A stretch of 30,612 nt of DNA from a virus (Duplodnaviria; Caudoviricetes), in the IMG/VR virus record IMGVR_UViG_3300032335_000508, positions 1 through 30,612 of that record; one strand, given 5' to 3'. The position numbers were made by a program, and so were the translations under genes. Under the pieces are notes generated by a model. That model searched no databases, was not told the DNA's origin, and worked only from the letters and a program-made list of their open reading frames with translations. Positions 2,634 through 22,166 of the stretch are shown piece by piece; within the stretch, counting starts at the first letter, position 1; each line of letters begins with the position of its first letter.

Positions 2634-3518
2634 ATGACAGCATTAATGGTATCGGAGGCCGCGAAGTCGGCCAGTAGTCAACTCGCAATCGCAGGCACGA
2701 AGGCTCTCGAAGCCTATATCGCCGCAGGCGACATCGGCAAACTCGGGCCGGAGCAGCGCATCGCGCTCTATCGCGCCGTTTGCGATTCGATGGGGTTGAA
2801 TCCCCTGACGCAACCGTTTCAGTATCTGACCCTGAGCGGGAAGACCGTGCTCTATGCAACCAAGAGTTGCACCGAGCAGTTGCGCTCGATTCACGGAGTT
2901 TCGGTCGTCCGCATGGAGCGCGAGATCATCGGCGACATTCTGACCGTGACGGTCGCCGTGACCGAGCGAACGGGCCGAGAAGACATCAGCACAGGCTCGG
3001 TCAGCCTCGCCGGATTGAAAGGCGAGAATCTCTCGAATGCTCACATGAAGGCTGAGACGAAGGCAAAGAGACGCGCCACGCTTTCGATCTGCGGCCTTGC
3101 CGTCCTCGATGAAACTGAGGTCGAGTCGATCGCCGGAGCGCAGGCCGTCTCGGTGCAGGAGTTCCACTCTGAGCCGAAGAAGGCCGCGAAGCCAACACGC
3201 GAGGAGCGGAGGAAGGACATCGAGGAACTCACGAATCCGATTCCGATCGCGAATCGAGTCGCCGAGCCGGAGATGGTCGCGGAGGACTGCATCACGATCC
3301 TCGCTCGCTCGCCGATCGGCGTAGTCGAAGGTAAGTCAGGCCGCCGCGTCTGGCGTATCGATCAGGAAGATCAGCCGATGCCGATCGCCGTTCTCTCGGA
3401 AGAGATTGCCTCCGGCCTCGAAGCGAATCAGGCGTTCAGCGTCAATACGCGCGTCCGAGTCAAGGCCAGAGCCAACGGCGGATTCGAGGTCGTCGAGATC
3501 ATCGGAGACGCTCCATGA
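2634..3518 (+). CDS. RecT/Red-beta-like single-strand annealing protein
   Basis: CxSMGLNPLTQPF...VLYA and NAHMKAETKAKRRATLSICGL motifs are typical of RecT/Bet-type SSAPs. Strong RBS AGGAGA. Confidence 0.7.
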   Translation: MTALMVSEAAKSASSQLAIAGTKALEAYIAAGDIGKLGPEQRIALYRAVCDSMGLNPLTQPFQYLTLSGKTVLYATKSCTEQLRSIHGVSVVRMEREIIGDILTVTVAVTERTGREDISTGSVSLAGLKGENLSNAHMKAETKAKRRATLSICGLAVLDETEVESIAGAQAVSVQEFHSEPKKAAKPTREERRKDIEELTNPIPIANRVAEPEMVAEDCITILARSPIGVVEGKSGRRVWRIDQEDQPMPIAVLSEEIASGLEANQAFSVNTRVRVKARANGGFEVVEIIGDAP

Positions 3519-3919: not shown

Positions 3920-4117
3920 CAATCTTCGGAAATTTCCAAGTTTCCCCCCTTTACAAATCGAAATCCCTCCCCCCTAATAACCCCCCACCCGAGCAAAGCG
4001 ACACAGATACGCACTCGGTGTTTCGGTTCGACTCCCTGAATCTAACTCCTTCTCTCTTCTCTTCTGTGAACCGGAAGCGGAGTACGTCGGACTTAGTTCA
4101 CGAGATAGGCCGCGAAA
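3920..4117. other. Candidate replication origin/regulatory region
   Basis: Longest low-coding stretch, with C-runs, a pyrimidine tract (ctccttctctcttctcttct) and palindrome GGAAATTTCC (3928-3937). Lies between the HTH gene and the loader-like gene. Confidence 0.35.
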
Positions 4118-4135
4118 CTCTGGCAGGAGCCAGAG
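4118..4135 (+). promoter_or_regulatory. Leader hairpin with AGGA loop (CsrA-type site)
   Basis: CTCTGGC-AGGA-GCCAGAG, 13 nt before ATG 4149. Confidence 0.5.
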
Positions 4136-4148
4136 AAAGAGAGACGCA

Positions 4149-4766
4149 ATGGAACAAAAGAAGCAAGGCATGACGCGCGAGGAACTCGCAGGCTTTACCG
4201 CGCGAGCAAATCGCTACTTCAAAGGCGAAACCGATCGCGAACTCTGGTCGCTTGCGCTACCACGCATCGCGGAGGAATCCGCCGAAGTCGCGATGGCGGC
4301 ACTTGAGAACTACTCGATTCAATGGGGAGGGCCGCGAGCGCGTTTCCTCCCTGCGAAATTTTTCGAGTTCCTCGCTGATGTGAAAGTTCGCCGTCTCGAA
4401 CTCAATCAGCGCGAGGCTCGCGAGCGCGAGTCGCGGATGCGATCAATCGCATCGAGCCGAGACGCGGCAGTCTGCGAGGCCGACTGGCTCTCACGTCGTC
4501 GCGAGATCGAGACTGCGAATCCGCTCGAAGTCGGAGAAGCAGTCGACTACCTTCGCTCGCTCGGTTGGGGAAATCCGCCGGAGTCCTTCGGCGCATGGAG
4601 CCGACCTTGGATTCTCGCCGTCTCGGATCTCGTCTGCCGGCGGACGGTCGCCGGATACGACCGCGATCGTCATGGATTTGAGGATCGGGATCGGAATCCG
4701 CTCCGGCCAGTCTCGGCGGCGACTTTCTACCGTGAGGCAGGAAAGGCCGCAGGACGGCTCTCCTAG
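4149..4766 (+). CDS. Putative replicative helicase loader/inhibitor (SPP1 G39P-like N-terminus)
   Basis: MTREE...RYF...ELW...L...VAMAALENY...RFLP pattern resembles G39P-family proteins, in replication-module position. Confidence 0.5.
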   Translation: MEQKKQGMTREELAGFTARANRYFKGETDRELWSLALPRIAEESAEVAMAALENYSIQWGGPRARFLPAKFFEFLADVKVRRLELNQREARERESRMRSIASSRDAAVCEADWLSRRREIETANPLEVGEAVDYLRSLGWGNPPESFGAWSRPWILAVSDLVCRRTVAGYDRDRHGFEDRDRNPLRPVSAATFYREAGKAAGRLS

Positions 4767-4825: not shown

Positions 4826-4842
4826 GTTTCCCGTGCTTTGGA

Positions 4843-4930
4843 TATACAGAGTCCCGATAACATGGAATCTTGAGGAAATTTCGGAAATGCTCAAGCGATT
4901 CCTTCCATTGAGCCGAAATCTCTGTATACT
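4843..4930 (+). promoter_or_regulatory. Imperfect inverted repeat containing a putative early promoter (-10 TATACT 4925-4930)
   Basis: Outer arms TATACAGAG/CTCTGTATA, inner arms GGAATCTTGAG/CTCAAG(CG)ATTCC. AT-richer than the flanks. Confidence 0.5.
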
Positions 4931-4937
4931 CATCGCA

Positions 4938-4968
4938 TCGAGGAACGGATCCTCGAACACAAAGGAGA
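4938..4968 (+). promoter_or_regulatory. Leader hairpin with ACGGA loop plus RBS
   Basis: TCGAGGA-ACGGA-TCCTCGA followed by AAAGGAGA. Confidence 0.65.
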
Positions 4969-4974
4969 CACGCT

Positions 4975-5181
4975 ATGAGCATCAATAACATCGAATCCCT
5001 GAAGCGTCGCGATCGCGAGACTCTCGAGAAGTGGGGAGTCGATTCTTGCCGGGAAGCATGGAAAATATCCGCGAATGGAGAGTCTGCGATCATCCAGTCG
5101 ATCCGCTCCGGGATTCCAGTTCGATCGACCGCTCCCGCAGTTAGAGCGTATCGAGAACTCCTTCGCGCTCAAAGCAAGTGA
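4975..5181 (+). CDS. Hypothetical early protein (68 aa)
   Basis: ATG with strong RBS AAAGGAGA; stop abuts the repeat element. Confidence 0.75.
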   Translation: MSINNIESLKRRDRETLEKWGVDSCREAWKISANGESAIIQSIRSGIPVRSTAPAVRAYRELLRAQSK

Positions 5182-5270
5182 ACGACTCGGATCGGAGGAG
5201 CCTCTTCGGAGGCTCCTCGAATCTGAGCCGTGAGCCAGACTCGCGAACGGATCGCGAGGAACAAAGGAGA
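5182..5270 (+). ncRNA. Repeated structured intergenic element, copy 1
   Basis: ACGACTCGGATCG, 10-bp stem with TTCG loop, TCTG..GCCGTGAGC..CAGA, 7-bp stem with ACGGA loop, RBS. Covaries with copy 2. Confidence 0.7.
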
Positions 5271-5275
5271 TAGCC

Positions 5276-5686
5276 ATGAAGATTTCTACCGTCCGCCAAG
5301 CAGCACAGAGCCTCGTTCGCGCCATCAATACTACCGAGTGGCAGAATCGACTCGATGCGCTCGGGATCAAGATCTGGATCACGAACGGGCCGCAAGATCA
5401 CTACGAGTACGGGATCGAGATCCGATACGAAGGAATTGATCCGAACTTGATGCCAAGCCAGATTTCTCATCCTGTCGGTTCTCCAGATCTGCGCGAAACC
5501 ATTCACGTCATCGCAGATATGGAAACCGAGAGCAGCGATAAGTACGGCATTCTCGCAGGCGCAAAGAGCGACTTCTGCCGCGATAACGCAAACTGGAACT
5601 GGATCAAATCCGTCTACATGATGAACAAGGATCTCCGCGCTGAAATCAAGGCAGCATTCGGAAATCCGCCATCGCACGAATGTTGA
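5276..5686 (+). CDS. Hypothetical early protein (136 aa)
   Basis: RBS AAAGGAGA; globular composition; bounded on both sides by the repeat elements. Confidence 0.8.
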   Translation: MKISTVRQAAQSLVRAINTTEWQNRLDALGIKIWITNGPQDHYEYGIEIRYEGIDPNLMPSQISHPVGSPDLRETIHVIADMETESSDKYGILAGAKSDFCRDNANWNWIKSVYMMNKDLRAEIKAAFGNPPSHEC

Positions 5687-5690
5687 GAAG

Positions 5691-5780
5691 ACGACTCGGA
5701 TCGGAGAGGCCTCGCGAGAGGCCTCTCGAATCCGCGCCGTGAGCCGGATCCTCGCACGGAGCGAGGAGAAGACAAGGAGA
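5691..5780 (+). ncRNA. Repeated structured intergenic element, copy 2
   Basis: ACGACTCGGATCG, 10-bp stem with GCGA loop, ATCCG..GCCGTGAGC..CGGAT, 6-bp stem with ACGGA loop, RBS. Confidence 0.7.
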
Positions 5781-5786
5781 CACATC

Positions 5787-6038
5787 ATGCAAGAAGAAGA
5801 CATCAAGGAACTCTCAGACCTCGAACTCGATCTCGCGATCTCCGCGATCAACGAATTGATCCGCGATCCGTTCCGCTGCATTCACGGCGAGTATCCGATG
5901 CTCGATCGCGCCTGCTCTGGTTCTTGGATTCAGGAACTCGAACAAACCGGATCGATTGAAATTCCTGCGCATTACTCGCGAACGAGTCGTCCTGAACAGG
6001 TCAAGCGCGAATCGCTCACGATCGGAGGCTCGCGGTGA
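5787..6038 (+). CDS. Hypothetical early protein
   Basis: ATG 5787 after AAGGAGA; GTGA overlap with the next gene. Confidence 0.75.
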   Translation: MQEEDIKELSDLELDLAISAINELIRDPFRCIHGEYPMLDRACSGSWIQELEQTGSIEIPAHYSRTSRPEQVKRESLTIGGSR

Positions 6039-6447: not shown

Positions 6448-6845
6448 CCTCGATACTCCTCTCTACTCTTCTCCTCATCGCACCACCGAAAGGCACGGAC
6501 ACGCGATCCATTCTCGACGCGATTCGCACCGTCGAGACTGGCGGCGAGGCCGATCCGGATCGAGCGATCGGCGACAAAGGAAAGGCACTTGGCGCGTATC
6601 AGATCCATCGAGGCTACTGGCTCGACGCAACGGAGAAAGATCCTGCGCTCCGCGCTCTTGGATACGAGAGCGTGACCGATCGAGCGATCGCCGAGCGTGT
6701 CGTCATCGCGTATCTGACTCGATACGCGCCAGACTGGAAACTCGACACCGTCGCGAGGATTCACAATGGTGGGCCTCGCGGTCACAAGAAAGACAGTACG
6801 CTTGACTACGCTCGCAAGGCGCGAGCAGCAATGGAGACACAATGA
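6444..6845 (+). CDS. Lysozyme-fold muramidase, i-type/destabilase-like, with hydrophobic N-terminus
   Basis: AIRTVETGG, GDKGKALGAYQIHRGYWLDA and ARIHNGGPRG motifs. Confidence 0.8.
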   Translation: MTSILLSTLLLIAPPKGTDTRSILDAIRTVETGGEADPDRAIGDKGKALGAYQIHRGYWLDATEKDPALRALGYESVTDRAIAERVVIAYLTRYAPDWKLDTVARIHNGGPRGHKKDSTLDYARKARAAMETQ

Positions 6846-13660: not shown

Positions 13661-14835
13661 AAATCCGACTTCCAACTCCAGAGTCGGTTCTCCATGCTTC
13701 GCAACTCGATGTCTTCCGTCGACTGCGGCGATTCAACGTGCTTGAGATCGGCCGTCGTTGGGGAAAGACAAAATTCGAAGAGTTCGTCATTCTCAACGAC
13801 GCGATCAGAGGCAGGCGGACGGCATGGTTCGCGCCTTCGTACAAGTACCTTGCCGAGCCAGTCCGCGATCTTGAACGCGCTCTCCTGCCGCTCATCTCGA
13901 AGCATGATCGCGTCGAGAAGCGCATCGAACTTTCAACCGGCGGGACGATCGACTTCTGGACGCTCGAAGACGCTGACGCAGGCCGAGGACGTTTCTACGA
14001 TCGAGTTGCAATCGACGAGGCAGGCTTCGTCGTCGGCCTTCTCGACATCTGGCGAGCAGCGATTCGACCGACTCTCGCCGATCGAAAGGGAAGCGCGATC
14101 TTCGCCGGAACTCCGAAAGGAACTGGAGACTTCCATCGTCTCTTCCTCGAAGCGGAAGGCGACACGACAGGAACTTGGGCCGCGTTTCGCATCGGCTCGA
14201 TGTCGAATCCGTTTCTTGATCCTGCGGAAGTAGAAGCGATGCGAGCGAGTCTGCCGAAGGCAATCGCAGATCAGGAACTCGAAGGGATTCCCGCAGAGGA
14301 CGGAGGAAATCCATTCGGCCTCGATGCGATTCGCGCTTGCATCGCGCCGATGTCGACGGCAACGCCAGAGGCTTGGGGAGTCGACCTCGCGAAGTCGCAG
14401 GACTGGACGGTCGCTGTCGGCCTTGATGCCGAGGGCCGCGTCTGTCGGCTCGAACGATGGCAGGCTCCGTGGAACGTCACGCGCGAGCGACTCGCGAAGA
14501 TGATTCAGAACGCTCCGGCGCAGATCGACTCGACTGGTGTCGGAGATCCGATCGTCGAAGATCTTCGCAAGGTTTGTCGAAGAACCGAAGGCTTCAAATT
14601 CACAAGCCAGAGCAAGCAGCAACTGATGGAAGGTCTTCAGATCGCGATCTCGACTGCGGATATTCGCTTTCCCGATGGTTGGCTACGGAGTGAACTTGAA
14701 TCGTTCGGCTTCCGATACTCAGGGAGAAACGTCTCATACGAGGCAACGGTCGGTCACGACGACGGAGTTTGCGCTCTCGCGCTTGCCGTTCTTGCGCGTC
14801 GAGCGCGAAGGCCTCTCATGGTGAAAGTCATCTGA
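13657..14835 (+). CDS. terL: Terminase large subunit
   Basis: Walker A GRRWGKT, Walker B VAIDEAG, GTPKG, and nuclease motifs GVDLAK..D, IDSTGVGD, HDD. Confidence 0.95.
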   Translation: MKIRLPTPESVLHASQLDVFRRLRRFNVLEIGRRWGKTKFEEFVILNDAIRGRRTAWFAPSYKYLAEPVRDLERALLPLISKHDRVEKRIELSTGGTIDFWTLEDADAGRGRFYDRVAIDEAGFVVGLLDIWRAAIRPTLADRKGSAIFAGTPKGTGDFHRLFLEAEGDTTGTWAAFRIGSMSNPFLDPAEVEAMRASLPKAIADQELEGIPAEDGGNPFGLDAIRACIAPMSTATPEAWGVDLAKSQDWTVAVGLDAEGRVCRLERWQAPWNVTRERLAKMIQNAPAQIDSTGVGDPIVEDLRKVCRRTEGFKFTSQSKQQLMEGLQIAISTADIRFPDGWLRSELESFGFRYSGRNVSYEATVGHDDGVCALALAVLARRARRPLMVKVI

Positions 14836-17800
14836 TGAATCTACTCGCACGAATCAAAGCGGCGTTCACTCCGGAGAAGTACTTCAATTCTTCGATGACG
14901 ATCCTTCGCGGCGAGCCATCGAAGCGATCGCCGTTTGAATATCGCTCGGCCGTGAATGCGTACCGATCATGGATCTACGCTGCGGCGAATCTGAACGCTG
15001 TCGCTGTCGCGAGTCAGCCTCTTCGCTTGTACGTTCGAAATAAGAGTCAGTCGACGAAACTCTGGAACACTCGCAAGGCTTCGCGCCGCACGAAGGCGTA
15101 TCTATTCGGCGATCTCGAACAGCGTCCGAGCCGATACGCGCTCACGAAGGCCGCAGAGTACGGCGACGACTTCGAGGTCGTCGACGACGCGCATCCGATC
15201 CTCCAGTTGCTCTCGAAGGTCAATCCATACCAGAACGGATTCGACGCGACAGTTCTCCGAGTTCTGTACGGCGAGTTGACGGGCAACTCCTACATTCATC
15301 CAGTCATCGATCAGCGTCTCGGCGTTCCGGTGCAACTCTGGACGATGCCTTCGCAATTCGTCGAAGTCGTCCCCGGTCAGCAAGGCGAAGACTTCATCAA
15401 GGAATATCGCTATGGCGCGACCGAAGAGCAGAAGCGCGAGAACACATACGCGCCTGATGAAGTGATCCATTTCAAGCGACCGAATCCGGCGGATATGTAT
15501 TACGGGATCGGCAAGGTCGAAGCAGCGTGGGGCGCGATCATGGCGAACGAGGCTATCCATGAGATGGATGTCGCGTTCTTCGCGAACAAAGCGCGACCTG
15601 ATTATCTCCTCGTTGTAAAGTCGCCTGCTCACGACGACGAACTCGAACGGCTCGAAGTCTCGATCGACGAGAAGTTGCGCGGATCGAAGCGCACGGGACG
15701 CTTCCTCACGACGACGGCAGACATCGACCTCAAGCCTCTCTCTTTCCCTACGAAGGATCTCGCAGGCCGCGATCAGATCGTCGAAGAGATCGCGGCGGTC
15801 TTCGGCGTTCCCGTCTCGATGCTGAAGGCAAACGATCCGAATCTCGCGAGCGCGACCGTAGGCTTCGCATCATGGAAGCAGACAACGATCCTTCCGCTGC
15901 TTCGCATGGATGAGGAGACGCTGAATCAGAATCTCCTTCCGCTCTTCAATATCGAAGAGGATGCGTTCCTCGCCTATGACAATCCGGTTTCCGAGGATGA
16001 GCGATTCGCCTTCGAGAAACTCCGCTCGATGGTCGCAGGCGGAATTATGACGGCAAACGAGGCGCGAATGCGCGAAGGCCTCGAGCCAGTCGAAGACCCG
16101 ATGGCCGACGCTCTTCTCGTCAACGGACAGCCTCTCGGAGGCCCTGCGCCTGTCGCGCCTCTCGGTATGGCTTCGAGTGCGCCGGACGGCCTGACTGGGC
16201 CTCTGGACGCCTCAAACGAGATCGAGGAGCCTCCGATGCTCCCGACACAGCCAGAGCAGAAGGACGCGCTCTCGGACTGCGTCTCGGAGAAGATTCCGAA
16301 ACTGATCGCGGAAGGCTATCCGCAGGATCAGGCAGTCGCGATCGCCTATTCAATGTGCGCCGAAGGGAAGAAGAATTGTGGAGTGGGTTCGGGAGGATTC
16401 GAACAAGGGAATACTTGCGGATCACTTCGAGGAAGTTCAGCATCGATCCAAGAATCTGCTCTTTCTCGCGTGAAAGATATCGAGATCACGTCTTCTATGA
16501 GTTCGAGTCAAGTTCAAGAAAAGGCAGATGAGGTGTACGAAGCGATTCAGAATGTGCTGACTGACTGGAACGAGCAGGCACTTGGAAAAGAAAGCCGTGA
16601 GTTTTTTGGAGATCGGGAACTCGTAGAACCAAAGCGTCAGATTGCATCGACTGGATCGAACTACATAGACGTGCAAGGCGACAACGGAAAGACGCTTCGA
16701 GTTCGAATCGCGAATCACATGGAGGCTTATCCTCCTCGCGGTGATGTAGAAGATCAAGTGAGCATCGCGCCCGGAGAACTATCCGCGACTCAGGCGATGA
16801 AGCGAGTGGTTCGATGGCTTGATGAAAATAGAGATCCGGTGCTCATCGAAGATGGTGAATATGAGGATCTCAAGCCAGAAAAAAAGACGAAGGCAATCGG
16901 CGACATCGACACTCGGCCTCCGCAGTCTGTCGCAGACAATGCTCGCCGCGCTCTCGAAGTTCGCGCACGGAAGCCAGAGAGCGAGCGCGGAATGACCGCA
17001 GTCGGAATCGCTCGCGCTCGCGACTTGATGAATCGAGTTCGCCTCTCTGAAGACACGATCCGCCGCATGGCTTCGTACTTCGAGCGTCACGAGGTCGACA
17101 AGCAAGGATCGACTTGGGACGAGCAGGGCAAGGGATGGCAGGCTTGGTACGGTTGGGGCGGCGACGACGGCTTTGCTTGGGCCAAACGGAAGATCGAGGA
17201 GTTCGATCGCGAGCGAGAGCGCAACTCGGAGCGCAAGAAGAAATGCGCCTGCGGATGCGGATCGAAGAACGGCGGCGGCGATCCTCCGGCCAAGCCATCC
17301 GAGCGCATCAGCGGAAGCGATCGCAACGAGGAAGGCTCCGCGAGCGGATCGCGCGGCGGAATCGAGATCAGCGAAGCCACGGAGAAGGCTCTGCGAGCGA
17401 AGGTCGACGAACACAACGAGAAGCACGGCGACGAGAAAGGGAAGCGCGTCGATCTCGGAATGCTGAAGGCCGTCTATCGACGTGGCGCAGGCGCGTTCTC
17501 GACGAGCCATCGCACCGGAGTCGGTCGCGAGCAATGGGCCATCGCGCGAGTGAATGCGTTCCTCACTCTCGTTCGTCGCGGCAAACCAGAGGATGCCGAC
17601 TACACGACCGACTTCGATCTTCTGCCGGACGGCCATCCAAAGAAGAGCGATGCGAAGAAATCTCTTCTCTCTGATCTCTGGTTGAAGATGATCGAGGCCG
17701 ACAAGATCGAGCCTCCGCACGTTCTCACGAAGGATCTCGGCAAGGACGCGCTCAAGGAATTCGACAAGATCACGAAGCGCGAGGATGAACTCGGTAAGAG

Positions 17801-18683
17801 CGTCGGTCGCATCTTCGATCGACAAGTCAAGGCCGTCCTCGAACGCATTGCGAAGCAGGACGCGCCGACGCAGGAACTCGCCGCAGAAGTTCAGTCTCTT
17901 CTTGAATCGAAGAAGTGGCGTAAGGACATCGTCGACGCGCTTCGACCGTATCTCGAAGACTCGCTCGCGGCAGGAATCATCCTCGGCAAGACGACGCTTG
18001 AGAAGATGAAGGCTCTTCCGGTGAACTTCGACAAGCACGGCGAGGATCTCAAGGCATACGCTCGAACCGAATCGATCCGTCTCGCGAATCGCGCGGCAGA
18101 CTCGACGAATCGATGGACGGCAGTCAAGTTCTCGAAGGTCATCGGCGACGGAGTCGCGAACGGCGAGACGATTCCAGAGATCGCGGAGCGCGTGAAGACG
18201 TGGGCCGTGAAGGACGGCGACGCGGAACGCGCGACAACTCGCCGCGCTTTGACGATCGCTCGAACTGAAGCGCAACGCGCGAGCCGACGAGCCGAGGTCG
18301 AAGCATGGAAGGCATCCGGCGTAGTCAGCGGAAAGACGTGGCTCCTCGCGCCTGATCCGTGCGAGTTCTGTGAGGCCGCGAGCGATGCGTTCTCGAAGAA
18401 CGCTGTCGGCCTCGAAGACTCTTTCTACGGTGAAGGCTCGGAGATCATCGGCAAGGACGGAGGAATCATGGTCGCCGATTATGAAGCGATTGACGGGCCT
18501 CCGCTGCATCCGAACTGCCGCTGCGCTCTTCAGCCTCGGCTCGATGACGAGTTCGAAGCAGAAATGCAACAAGCAGAGCGCGAACTCGCCGAAGCGGAAG
18601 CAGAGAATCTCCGCCAGATCATCGCGGAGAATGCAGAAGAAATTGCAGCGATTGACGCGCAAGTCGAAAGGATCATGCGATGA
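14835..18683 (+). CDS. Portal protein fused to several internal modules and a C-terminal MuF/SPP1 gp7-like head morphogenesis domain (1282 aa)
   Basis: HK97-type portal motifs (PNPY.., GNSY, EVIHFK.PNP...YYG, IAAVFGVP, T.NEAR...GLEP). C-terminal IARTE, KTW...PCEFC and PPLHPNCRC. TGATG-coupled to terL. Confidence 0.9.
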   Translation: MNLLARIKAAFTPEKYFNSSMTILRGEPSKRSPFEYRSAVNAYRSWIYAAANLNAVAVASQPLRLYVRNKSQSTKLWNTRKASRRTKAYLFGDLEQRPSRYALTKAAEYGDDFEVVDDAHPILQLLSKVNPYQNGFDATVLRVLYGELTGNSYIHPVIDQRLGVPVQLWTMPSQFVEVVPGQQGEDFIKEYRYGATEEQKRENTYAPDEVIHFKRPNPADMYYGIGKVEAAWGAIMANEAIHEMDVAFFANKARPDYLLVVKSPAHDDELERLEVSIDEKLRGSKRTGRFLTTTADIDLKPLSFPTKDLAGRDQIVEEIAAVFGVPVSMLKANDPNLASATVGFASWKQTTILPLLRMDEETLNQNLLPLFNIEEDAFLAYDNPVSEDERFAFEKLRSMVAGGIMTANEARMREGLEPVEDPMADALLVNGQPLGGPAPVAPLGMASSAPDGLTGPLDASNEIEEPPMLPTQPEQKDALSDCVSEKIPKLIAEGYPQDQAVAIAYSMCAEGKKNCGVGSGGFEQGNTCGSLRGSSASIQESALSRVKDIEITSSMSSSQVQEKADEVYEAIQNVLTDWNEQALGKESREFFGDRELVEPKRQIASTGSNYIDVQGDNGKTLRVRIANHMEAYPPRGDVEDQVSIAPGELSATQAMKRVVRWLDENRDPVLIEDGEYEDLKPEKKTKAIGDIDTRPPQSVADNARRALEVRARKPESERGMTAVGIARARDLMNRVRLSEDTIRRMASYFERHEVDKQGSTWDEQGKGWQAWYGWGGDDGFAWAKRKIEEFDRERERNSERKKKCACGCGSKNGGGDPPAKPSERISGSDRNEEGSASGSRGGIEISEATEKALRAKVDEHNEKHGDEKGKRVDLGMLKAVYRRGAGAFSTSHRTGVGREQWAIARVNAFLTLVRRGKPEDADYTTDFDLLPDGHPKKSDAKKSLLSDLWLKMIEADKIEPPHVLTKDLGKDALKEFDKITKREDELGKSVGRIFDRQVKAVLERIAKQDAPTQELAAEVQSLLESKKWRKDIVDALRPYLEDSLAAGIILGKTTLEKMKALPVNFDKHGEDLKAYARTESIRLANRAADSTNRWTAVKFSKVIGDGVANGETIPEIAERVKTWAVKDGDAERATTRRALTIARTEAQRASRRAEVEAWKASGVVSGKTWLLAPDPCEFCEAASDAFSKNAVGLEDSFYGEGSEIIGKDGGIMVADYEAIDGPPLHPNCRCALQPRLDDEFEAEMQQAERELAEAEAENLRQIIAENAEEIAAIDAQVERIMR

Positions 18684-20825: not shown

Positions 20826-21266
20826 ATGAAAGCCAACTACAAGATCATCACCGTCGCAGGCGCATCGACTGCCGCTAGCACGACTCTGACAGCAGAATTC
20901 GACACGCTCGGATTTTCTTATGCGTCGATTGCCTTCGTCGACGGAACTAGTCCGACGACTCACGGCCTTTCGACAGTTGCTGCCAATCACGTTGTTCAGC
21001 ACAGCGATGCTTCCGGATCTGGCTTCTCTGCCATCTCTGGATTCACCGCAGGAACGGACTGGACTCCATCGAGCGCAGCACTCGCAACGAACGTTGCGAA
21101 ACTCGTTTACAACGTCGATCTTCGCGGCCGCAAGCGATACCTGAAGATTCAAGTGTCTCCGAACGGCGCGATCACGACTGGCGCACTTGTTTGCACTCTC
21201 ACGAATCCTGCAGATGGTCGCGTGACCGCTGCGGAAATCGGCGCAGGAGCAGTCGTCAACGGTTGA
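20826..21266 (+). CDS. Putative capsid decoration/cement protein, paralog 1
   Basis: Directly after the MCP; DTLGFSYASI...QHSD...GTDW...VDLRGRKRYLK. Confidence 0.7.
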   Translation: MKANYKIITVAGASTAASTTLTAEFDTLGFSYASIAFVDGTSPTTHGLSTVAANHVVQHSDASGSGFSAISGFTAGTDWTPSSAALATNVAKLVYNVDLRGRKRYLKIQVSPNGAITTGALVCTLTNPADGRVTAAEIGAGAVVNG

Positions 21267-21286
21267 TCAGTGAATGCATGATCCAT

Positions 21287-21317
21287 GAGAGGGGAGGGAA
21301 ACCTCCCCTCTCTCTTT
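21287..21317 (+). terminator. Hairpin/terminator after capsid and first decoration gene
   Basis: GAGAGGGGAGG-GAAA-CCTCCCCTCTC followed by TCTTT. Confidence 0.7.
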
Positions 21318-21326
21318 GGAGGACAG

Positions 21327-21740
21327 ATGAGAAACTCTCAAAATATGCGCTCGGTCGTTCTTTCAGAGGCGAGCGCATCGACACTCACGGCATCAGTCGA
21401 CACGCAGGGATTTCGCTTTGCGCGTATCGCCTTTTCATCCTCATCGACTGGAGCACCGACGACAAACTGCAAACTTGAGCAGTCAGACGATAATTCGACT
21501 TGGGAAGCGATTCGAGGAATCGTTCTCGCAACTGACTACACGCTCGCAACGACGACGAATCTCACGACTCGTCCGAAGGTCGTTTGGGATGTGAATCTCG
21601 CAGGTCGAAAGCGATATCTCAAGGCGACGATCGAACACGCGACCTCTGGCCGAGGTCAACTCAACGCGATGCTTCTCGATCCGATCGACGGCATCACGAC
21701 CGTCGCCGAGACTGGCGCAGCGAACTACGTCATCGCGTAA
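21327..21740 (+). CDS. Putative decoration protein, paralog 2
   Basis: MRNSQ...VDTQGFRFARI...EQSDD..WEAI...PKVVWDV.L.GRKRYLK; RBS GGAGG. Confidence 0.7.
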   Translation: MRNSQNMRSVVLSEASASTLTASVDTQGFRFARIAFSSSSTGAPTTNCKLEQSDDNSTWEAIRGIVLATDYTLATTTNLTTRPKVVWDVNLAGRKRYLKATIEHATSGRGQLNAMLLDPIDGITTVAETGAANYVIA

Positions 21741-21752
21741 CGAGGAGATTCG

Positions 21753-22166
21753 ATGCGAAACTCGCAAGACTTCAAGATGGTCGTTCTCGATCAGTCGTTT
21801 GGTCAGAGTTTCACGGCATCCGTCGACACTCAAGGATATCGATACGCGCGAATCATCTTCTGCTCGGATTCAGCGGGAAGACTCGTCAGCGGAACCAAGA
21901 TCGAGCAGTCGGACAAGGGAGTCACTTGGGAAGCGATTCCGAAGATGGTTGCCGGAGTCGACTACGTTCTTCCGAGCAAGGCGACAGTGACGACACAACC
22001 GAAGATCGTTTGGGATGTCTCGATGCTCGGGAAGAAGCGATTTCTCAAAGCGACCATCGAGCAGATTACTGAAGGAAATTCGATCATCATGGCTCAACTT
22101 CTTGAGCCGATCGACTCCGTCACGACTGCCGAGGAAACTGGAGTCACGACCTACGCGCTCGGATGA
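21753..22166 (+). CDS. Putative decoration protein, paralog 3
   Basis: MRNSQ...VDTQGYRYARI...EQSD..WEAI...PKIVWDV.M.GKKRFLK; RBS GAGGAG. Confidence 0.7.
   Translation: MRNSQDFKMVVLDQSFGQSFTASVDTQGYRYARIIFCSDSAGRLVSGTKIEQSDKGVTWEAIPKMVAGVDYVLPSKATVTTQPKIVWDVSMLGKKRFLKATIEQITEGNSIIMAQLLEPIDSVTTAEETGVTTYALG

Follow-up and report, generated by a model that had tools for sequence, protein, structure and literature searches.

The DNA analyzed here (the window, 30,612 nt) is the record of a complete phage genome; it has a terminal repeat of 123 nt, and its main genes are all on the plus strand. The genome is small (30 kb) and siphovirus-like, and it encodes a terminase, portal, HK97-type protease, capsid, RusA-like resolvase, Gp157/Gam-like protein and destabilase-type lysozyme. 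Elsewhere in the window, the portal protein (14769-18683; 1304 aa) is a fusion with a DUF5824 region and a head morphogenesis domain resembling Mu gpF, and three paralogous genes (phrog_5707; 20826-22166), among which DNA repeats recur at distances of 426-498 nt, lie 3' of the capsid gene.

The element described below occurs in an array of small genes, all on the plus strand, which sits between a conserved gene without a family match (4149-4766, 205 aa; the anchor gene) and the lysozyme/Gp157 block. A likely sigma-70-type early promoter (TTCCAT, 16 nt, TATACT; 4903-4930) was recognized by eye; a consensus promoter scan of the window did not list it, and relatives carry the putative array promoter with equal spacing and TTGCRN/TAKVMT-like boxes, keeping the -35/16 nt/-10 layout. 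Seven nucleotides past the -10 box begins a 7-bp leader hairpin with loop ACGGA (4938-4956), likely the 5' end of the primary transcript, which in relatives has different stem letters and the same pairing. Three ORFs without a known family follow: cassette ORF 1 (4975-5181, 68 aa), which has a 94% identical counterpart in some relatives and is replaced in others; cassette ORF 2 (5276-5686, 136 aa), without a relative in the compared loci; and ORF 3 (5787-6038, 83 aa), the constant final array gene in 11 close contigs. Upstream of the array promoter (4846-4900), a GATAAC..GAAT motif with inverted repeats is kept in 19 of 24 loci, distant ones included, and the -10 region recurs in reverse near 4844-4852, where it may act as an operator or as a promoter directed leftward. 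Within the 270 nt that precede gene 4149 lies a conserved, promoter- or origin-like C-run block (CCCCC-TTKACAA ... CCCCCTAA; window 3940-4000, L034 2140-2180, L049 1797-1840, L051 2490-2533), after which a structured leader follows.

A folded element at the joints between array genes

Two copies of an element of about 95 nt join the array genes. Copy 1 (5182-5275) begins directly past the stop codon at 5179-5181, copy 2 (5691-5786) begins 4 nt past the stop codon at 5684-5686, and both extend to the ribosome binding site (RBS) of the next ORF, as the sequence-only reading of this locus had placed them. In joint 1, a long hairpin (5182-5231) is composed of a lower stem, a 2x2 internal loop and a 10-bp upper stem (5195-5218) capped by UUCG. 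Its 3' strand can alternatively form a second hairpin, P2 (5222-5239), which overlaps it, and is followed by a segment (5240-5275) comprising hairpin P3 (5240-5258, loop ACGGA), an A-rich linker and a Shine-Dalgarno sequence (5264-5269). Joint 2 has the same parts: a long hairpin (5691-5740; upper stem 5704-5727, loop GCGA), P2 (5731-5748), and a 3' segment (5749-5786) with P3 (5749-5767, loop ACGGA), linker and Shine-Dalgarno sequence (5774-5779). The copies are 76% identical across 80 nt without gaps. Their stems, the exchange of UUCG for GCGA and the change in P2 agree with the earlier description, as does the presence of the last hairpin only in the promoter-proximal leader (4938-4956).

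Both copies fold far better than shuffled sequences (z = -4.7 and -3.4; none of 200 shuffles equal). The 15-16-mer that they have in common is by itself within chance, as Markov simulations gave 0-11 repeated 15-mers; it is position, structure and homologues that place the element beyond chance. The two mutually exclusive folds proposed earlier are unbalanced: the long hairpin has a probability of 1.00 in both window copies, where it beats the three-hairpin form by 9.3 and 6.0 kcal/mol, and its pair 9-42 has a probability of at least 0.6 in 25 of 26 variants, the alternative fold being preferred by L067 only.

Relatives were collected by pattern and protein scans of viral contigs plus one metagenome scan, and a reverse reading of a palindrome (L035) was left out before variants were counted. 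The scans gave 27 element copies that differ somewhere along their length, 23 of them distinct across the first 62 nt. Among 23 contigs found through the anchor protein, 17 bear one to three full elements each, just downstream of the anchor gene. The element was present in 16/16 contigs with an anchor identity of at least 51% and in 1/7 at 38% or less; one of the six contigs without it (L090) spans only 76 nt downstream. Four joints in L072, L076 and L077 also have no long hairpin and, together with the six contigs lacking the element, indicate that this hairpin is dispensable. In L088, whose anchor protein is 33% identical, nt 1-50 are identical to window copy 2, which suggests, from sequence comparison, lateral movement of the element.

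The size of the hairpin is uniform. All 12 loci of the first pattern scan gave 50-nt matches where 18-34 nt were permitted, and the 16 true copies among 108 metagenome pattern matches all had 8+8 spacing where 5-14 nt were permitted per side; hairpin length is thus no artefact of the search, as looser settings still returned one size. The other 92 metagenome matches, with unequal spacing and an unpaired upper stem, were rejected as chance. In all 23 distinct variants the upper stem has 10/10 pairs and a 4-nt loop, and no variant has a standard pair at 12:39 or 13:38, not even L083, in which the four bases are all different. Within 15 distinct 50-mers the internal loop is a symmetric 2x2, or 3x3 in 4/15, and the lower stem contains an A-C mismatch in 14/15 and a second mismatch in 11/15.

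The compensatory changes seen between the window copies extend to this set, in which six of 21 pairs vary on both sides and 90.5% of cells are paired (15 distinct 50-mers); none of 500 shuffles scored as high, slid controls were 35-49% paired, and L166 contributes one further compensatory pair. As the aligned variants are close kin, this covariation reflects few independent events. The motifs called invariant are so between the two window copies only; in relatives, positions 4, 6, 8, 11-13 and all positions past nt 50 vary, as does the ACGGA loop, of which there are many forms. Since the antisense strand folds equally well as or better than the sense strand, energy alone fixes neither the strand nor whether RNA or DNA is concerned. 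The position of the element and its loops (UUCG or GNRA in 16/23 variants; the non-special UCGC, CUCG and CUCA in 7/23) favour sense RNA.

Database searches returned no known counterpart. No Rfam family matched at the element, in line with the earlier failure to assign it to one, and the single match at E <= 1 in the whole window lay elsewhere and below threshold. The exact element pattern gave no match in genome contigs, and blastn of 4840-5800 gave none among 50,697 GenBank phages. Searching 101 genomes of a Phycisphaerales order with the element model R1 returned one weak palindrome that is not the element, which, by sequence, is not a host repeat. Open-access literature (subscription journals and supplements excluded) contained papers on the PeSL modules of T4-type phages and nothing on this element. 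The element constitutes a genuine, uncatalogued family of RNA within a single phage clade.

A separate, putative start signal and the exchange of array genes

The last hairpin, P3, with its A(N)GRN loop, is a separate, putative start signal that also stands ahead of three non-cassette genes. The A(N)GRN stem, linker and RBS precede six of the 51 gene starts in the window (2634, 4149, 4975, 5276, 5787 and 6842), all in the early/recombination region and none at structural gene starts; one further match, weak and distant, lies ahead of 21753. Outside the array, the small plus-strand hairpins are found at 2601-2615 (loop ACGGT, ahead of the annealase gene), 4118-4135 (loop AGGA, ahead of gene 4149) and 6810-6826 (loop AAGGC, ahead of the Gp157/Gam-like gene and inside the end of the destabilase gene). 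Relatives keep the hairpin with changed, covarying stems, making it clade-wide. Of 56 array hairpins, 48 have a GGA in the loop and eight lack it, and hairpins of the annealase and Gp157 genes mostly have ACGGT/AAGGY loops without GGA. The AGAAA/ACAAA linker and GGAG complement the 16S tail CCUCCUUUCU of four candidate-host genomes, forming an extended Shine-Dalgarno sequence. A narrow hairpin-plus-RBS pattern was not enriched host-wide (two matches in five genomes vs one control match).

The candidate host comes from the capsid protein, whose relatives in GTDB genomes fall in Planctomycetota in 11 of 14 cases, at 37-44% identity and twice in megabase contigs; the three best matches (75, 60 and 45%) are short contigs in three other phyla, and a Planctomycetota host is a lead drawn from these protein matches. 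Within the candidate order, taken from one capsid-relative genome, RNase III was found in 60/61 genomes and CsrA in 61/61 (both tallies include the unpublished genome G046, on which no conclusion rests). Megabase contigs of Phycisphaerales hosts (L204, L207) include capsid-like gene clusters whose neighbours are similar in several MAGs; these may be domesticated loci and not prophages.

The ORFs between joints do vary between related genomes, as a shuffling of cassettes would have it. In 11 close contigs (the window and L068-L077; anchor protein 92-97% identical), 11 variable ORF families occur in nine arrangements, plus one constant last gene, and four ORF families occupy different positions across the loci examined. 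Joints are full, short (P3 directly preceded by the first 7 nt; L072, L076) or minimal (P3 only; L076, L077), and L049 has an unrelated 12-bp hairpin at the equal place, followed by an exact copy of its own leader. One ORF family precedes three different joint types that have only the first 7 nt in common. As the hairpin type tracks neither the upstream nor the downstream ORF, crossovers appear to have occurred at various points rather than through a site-specific reaction. Exchange of genes is thus seen by comparison among relatives, and its mechanism is likely homologous recombination, given variable crossover points and a phage-encoded annealase of the Rad52/Redbeta fold. This protein (2634-3518, plus strand) had been called RecT-like; it has no sequence match in Pfam, PHROG or PDB, and it is a predicted single-strand annealing protein from its structure model (pLDDT 79), whose best Foldseek matches are human RAD52 (E 8e-4), Mgm101 and lambda Red-beta. 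These matches are modest (E about 1e-3, TM 0.35-0.4), and the ESM Atlas gave a weak Rad52_Rad22 lead (20% of one cluster). The products of 22 cassette ORFs (three from the window, 19 from relatives) had no Pfam match above cut-off and one PHROG match under E 0.01, to a family of unknown function. Unrelated cassette ORFs have their last 6-7 codons in common (window 5160-5181 vs L068/L076/L077), which suggests that crossovers took place within the ends of ORFs. The array region of distant relatives contains genes that bear long, low-complexity repeats rich in Ala, Trp and Asp (L049 3700-4790, L051 3790-4140, L086 5360-5830), duplicated in L049.

Probable RNase III processing and its alternatives

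For comparison, the T7 early region was taken from V01146, a record without labels for processing sites. Between genes 1 and 1.1 it contains a 10-bp stem with a GCAA loop and boxes that match the description of R1.1, and we take this hairpin (loop at 5871) to be R1.1 by its loop and the box pairs given in PMC1540722. In the accessible text of that paper, the minimum from cut to loop is 11 bp, the product between two cuts measures 28 nt, and internal loops can limit RNase III to one bond, leaving a protective 3' hairpin; the accessible text of PMC4858673 describes the T7 early precursor as cut at five sites, with R1.1 cut at a single bond. It follows from the 11-bp minimum and the 28-nt product that the 3' cut falls 13 nt past the loop, i.e., after nt 40 in the element. 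Transfer of this register thus predicts a 5' site inside the 2x2 loop and a 3' site on the plus strand between 5221 and 5222 in joint 1 and between 5730 and 5731 in joint 2. A product starting at nt 41 is predicted to have its first base paired in 21/23 variants and two free bases in 2/23, and the T7 strand past the R1.1 register (L219; T7 record 5888-5910) is predicted to refold likewise, into 7 bp with one free base. Because the variants are related, the coincidence of cut and P2 start counts as little more than a single observation.

Agreement with the RNase III boxes of E. coli is mixed. Across 15 distinct 50-mers, pb1 is GC in 15/15, pb2 AU in 13/15 and db1 UA in 15/15, and pb4 is mismatched, as in R1.1. 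However, pb3 (GC) and db2 (CG) depart from the E. coli optimum in 15/15 and pb2 is the inhibitory GC in 2/15, so that only three of six positions are canonical by E. coli rules. In the accessible text of PMC1540722, UG at db2 is stringent, and the db may not be conserved across orthologues.

Putting the probability at about 0.6, we favour the element as a T7-style single-cut RNase III processing site combined with a standard translation start, its copies likely doubling as joints for homologous recombination. This unites two options of the sequence-only reading, RNase III-type processing and cassette shuffling, which geometry, covariation and varied arrangements support together, the cut itself being a prediction. 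One promoter would drive the entire array, and the 50-nt hairpin, backed by compensatory changes, is predicted to form right past each stop codon. By analogy with R1.1, the host's RNase III would make a single cut, after nt 40 in the 3' strand, with the 2x2 loop preventing one in the 5' strand. The 10-bp hairpin is predicted to stay on the upstream message and guard its 3' end, and the strand set free to refold into P2, so that the downstream message would open with a paired nucleotide. P3, the A-rich linker and the extended Shine-Dalgarno sequence, observed at each of these genes, would act as their common start signal, and genes between joints, which differ in identity and order among relatives, would swap through annealase-driven crossovers anywhere in the common sequence. 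The earlier proposal that each ORF receives the same 5' end is inexact here, as processed messages would gain P2 ahead of the hairpin that opens the primary transcript.

P2 also finds a place in this processing scheme. It is retained with differing sequences in divergent phages, and its pair 43 is C-G in nine cases, U-A in five, U-G in three and C-A in none; taken alone, its stability gave p > 0.05 against shuffles in 11/18 distinct segments. According to the accessible text of PMC3997798, RNA with a 5' monophosphate decays faster, and a hairpin at the 5' end can make the RNA downstream of it more stable; this supplies a purpose for P2. In our model the two folds most likely represent the RNA before and after cutting and not a switch: the alternative fold is a minor form at equilibrium, is clear of the RBS and is expected for the 3' product once the cut is made, so the proposal of a free-standing switch finds little support. 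A kissing interaction between the CCGT and P3 loops finds no support among variants, in which the partner becomes AAGGA, AGGA or AAGAT while CCGT is unchanged, and the same loop is kept in leaders without any partner. A K-turn reading of the internal loop was rejected by eye as a misfit in register.

The rival that survives best, though we think it unlikely, holds that the hairpins are never cut and act as insulators, barriers to 3' exonucleases or weak U-less terminators, so that expression is graded from gene to gene of the array, and that shuffling is a side effect of the copies being repeated. Such a role would suit a very stable, GC-rich stem that starts 0-8 nt from the stop codon or overlaps it, and the unrelated hairpin at the equal place in L049; T4-type PeSL stem-loops, moreover, function as terminators in the accessible text of PMC2839356. 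However, the hairpin has no U tract (at most two T in the 8 nt past it), and a barrier would need neither a fixed 10-bp length nor a conserved unpaired 2x2 loop, a lower stem or a second fold.

A more elaborate reading, which we regard as distinctly improbable, sees a cassette system that dispenses with promoters and an integrase and relies on RNA processing, itself gated by translation, to make its genes autonomous: a ribosome stopping on the upstream gene would switch the joint between two forms, the long hairpin that can be cleaved and the three-hairpin form that cannot, and the A(N)GRN hairpin marking all early genes of the clade would be read by a CsrA paralogue of the host. Slightly less probable again is the element as a translation-gated switch or protein-binding RNA, in which the terminating ribosome covers nt 1-13 and flips the element to the three-hairpin form, a host CsrA paralogue or phage protein then reading the A(N)GGA loop and the Shine-Dalgarno GGA. 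Blocking nt 1-13 is indeed predicted to yield the P2 fold in most variants, but the RBS is hidden in neither fold. Judged by its motif, the A(N)GRN hairpin is a possible CsrA site: most array loops contain GGA, and AAGGA pentaloops bind RsmE well, with upstream and RBS GGA pairs forming a classic layout, in the accessible text of PMC4005645. CsrA was also found throughout the candidate-host genomes, often in several copies; the host is uncertain, so that this 61/61 tally speaks for the candidate order only. Against recognition by CsrA, the loops are of 4-5 nt and not the high-affinity hexaloop, GGA is missing from the eight array loops and most annealase/Gp157 hairpins noted above, and the phage encodes no CsrA by Pfam.

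A DNA-level site, i.e., a cruciform or single-strand hairpin (attC- or REP-like) cut by a recombinase or RusA-like resolvase for cassette exchange, is very unlikely. The element is a near-palindrome whose A-C mismatches turn into G-T on the other strand, which folds equally well as DNA, and RusA-like, Gam-like and annealase genes are present. However, the 51 ORFs scanned include no integrase, recombinase or HUH transposase, and the hairpin type is tied to neither flanking ORF, placing crossovers at more than one point. The element is not repeated in the host (one weak palindrome match in the 101 genomes), and its special tetraloops, in 16/23 variants, are those of the sense strand. Integron attC sites carry the cores RYYYAAC and GTTRRRY and act with a cognate integrase; the flanks of the element vary and are without such core triads. 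A new self-cleaving ribozyme freeing each cassette message, although rightly positioned, is hardly to be expected of an element with no Rfam match at E <= 1, invariant bases mostly in stems, no long invariant unpaired core, no pseudoknot support and a conserved loop that also occurs alone.

Comparison with known systems

For the small hairpin, the nearest described analogue is the SAS/ESAS of cluster K mycobacteriophages, which, in the accessible text of PMC3203893, is likewise a stereotyped RBS-bearing signal, found ahead of some genes and preceded by an inverted repeat. There is no sequence likeness to the element hairpin in that text, and the ESAS has conserved arms and a variable spacer (protein-DNA-like), whereas the hairpin described here has a conserved loop and a stem that changes in sequence but still pairs. 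Compared with CsrA/RsmE sites (A(N)GGAX loops; accessible text of PMC4005645), most array copies have a loop GGA just upstream of a GGA-bearing RBS, but the loops are of 4-5 nt and GGA is missing in 8/56 array copies and in most non-array copies.

The joints as a whole recall the PeSL cassettes of T4-type phages, which, in the accessible text of PMC2839356 and PMC4122927, are also repeated modules running from a stop codon to the next Shine-Dalgarno sequence and start, with small genes of no known function exchanged by recombination between copies. Unlike the PeSL, which holds a sigma-70-like promoter and a terminator stem-loop (accessible text of PMC2839356), the joints have no -10 box and no U tract, and both an internal promoter and an intrinsic terminator were sought in them and not found. 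A -10-like hexamer precedes P3 in 0/27 full joints vs 22/23 first hairpins, a label that itself partly rests on a similar -10-type pattern. By definition, which places a promoter inside each copy, the element is not a PeSL.

Searching with the element model did not return the T7 locus, i.e., there is no likeness in sequence, and the resemblance to a T7 processing site, which we judge probable, lies in geometry and predicted register. Like the T7 early mRNA signals (accessible text of PMC4858673), the elements are irregular intergenic hairpins between early genes of one putative transcript. Like R1.1, they have a 10-bp upper stem and tetraloop above an internal loop; in the most frequent variant, the base of this stem reads AGG/CCU. 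As in T7 sites, the structure spans about two helical turns (21 possible pairs in the element), the internal loop stands above a lower stem, here symmetric and with a predicted cut-limiting effect, and the 3' strand is predicted to refold past the cut. Unlike T7 sites, the element has a small symmetric loop, GC-rich stems and non-canonical db2 and pb3, and its copies flank interchangeable genes and are fused to a separate A(N)GRN hairpin. It thereby offers a testable single-bond prediction (after nt 40) far from the T7/E. coli model, in a phage whose host probably belongs to a poorly studied phylum. Any ORF placed between two joints would have both its 3' and its 5' end guarded and would gain a strong start, with no need of its own promoter, so that one small RNA module could serve expression and gene exchange alike, and the 11 or more unannotated cassette proteins are candidates for host take-over or counter-defence. 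The sequence family is new; the kind of device is already known.
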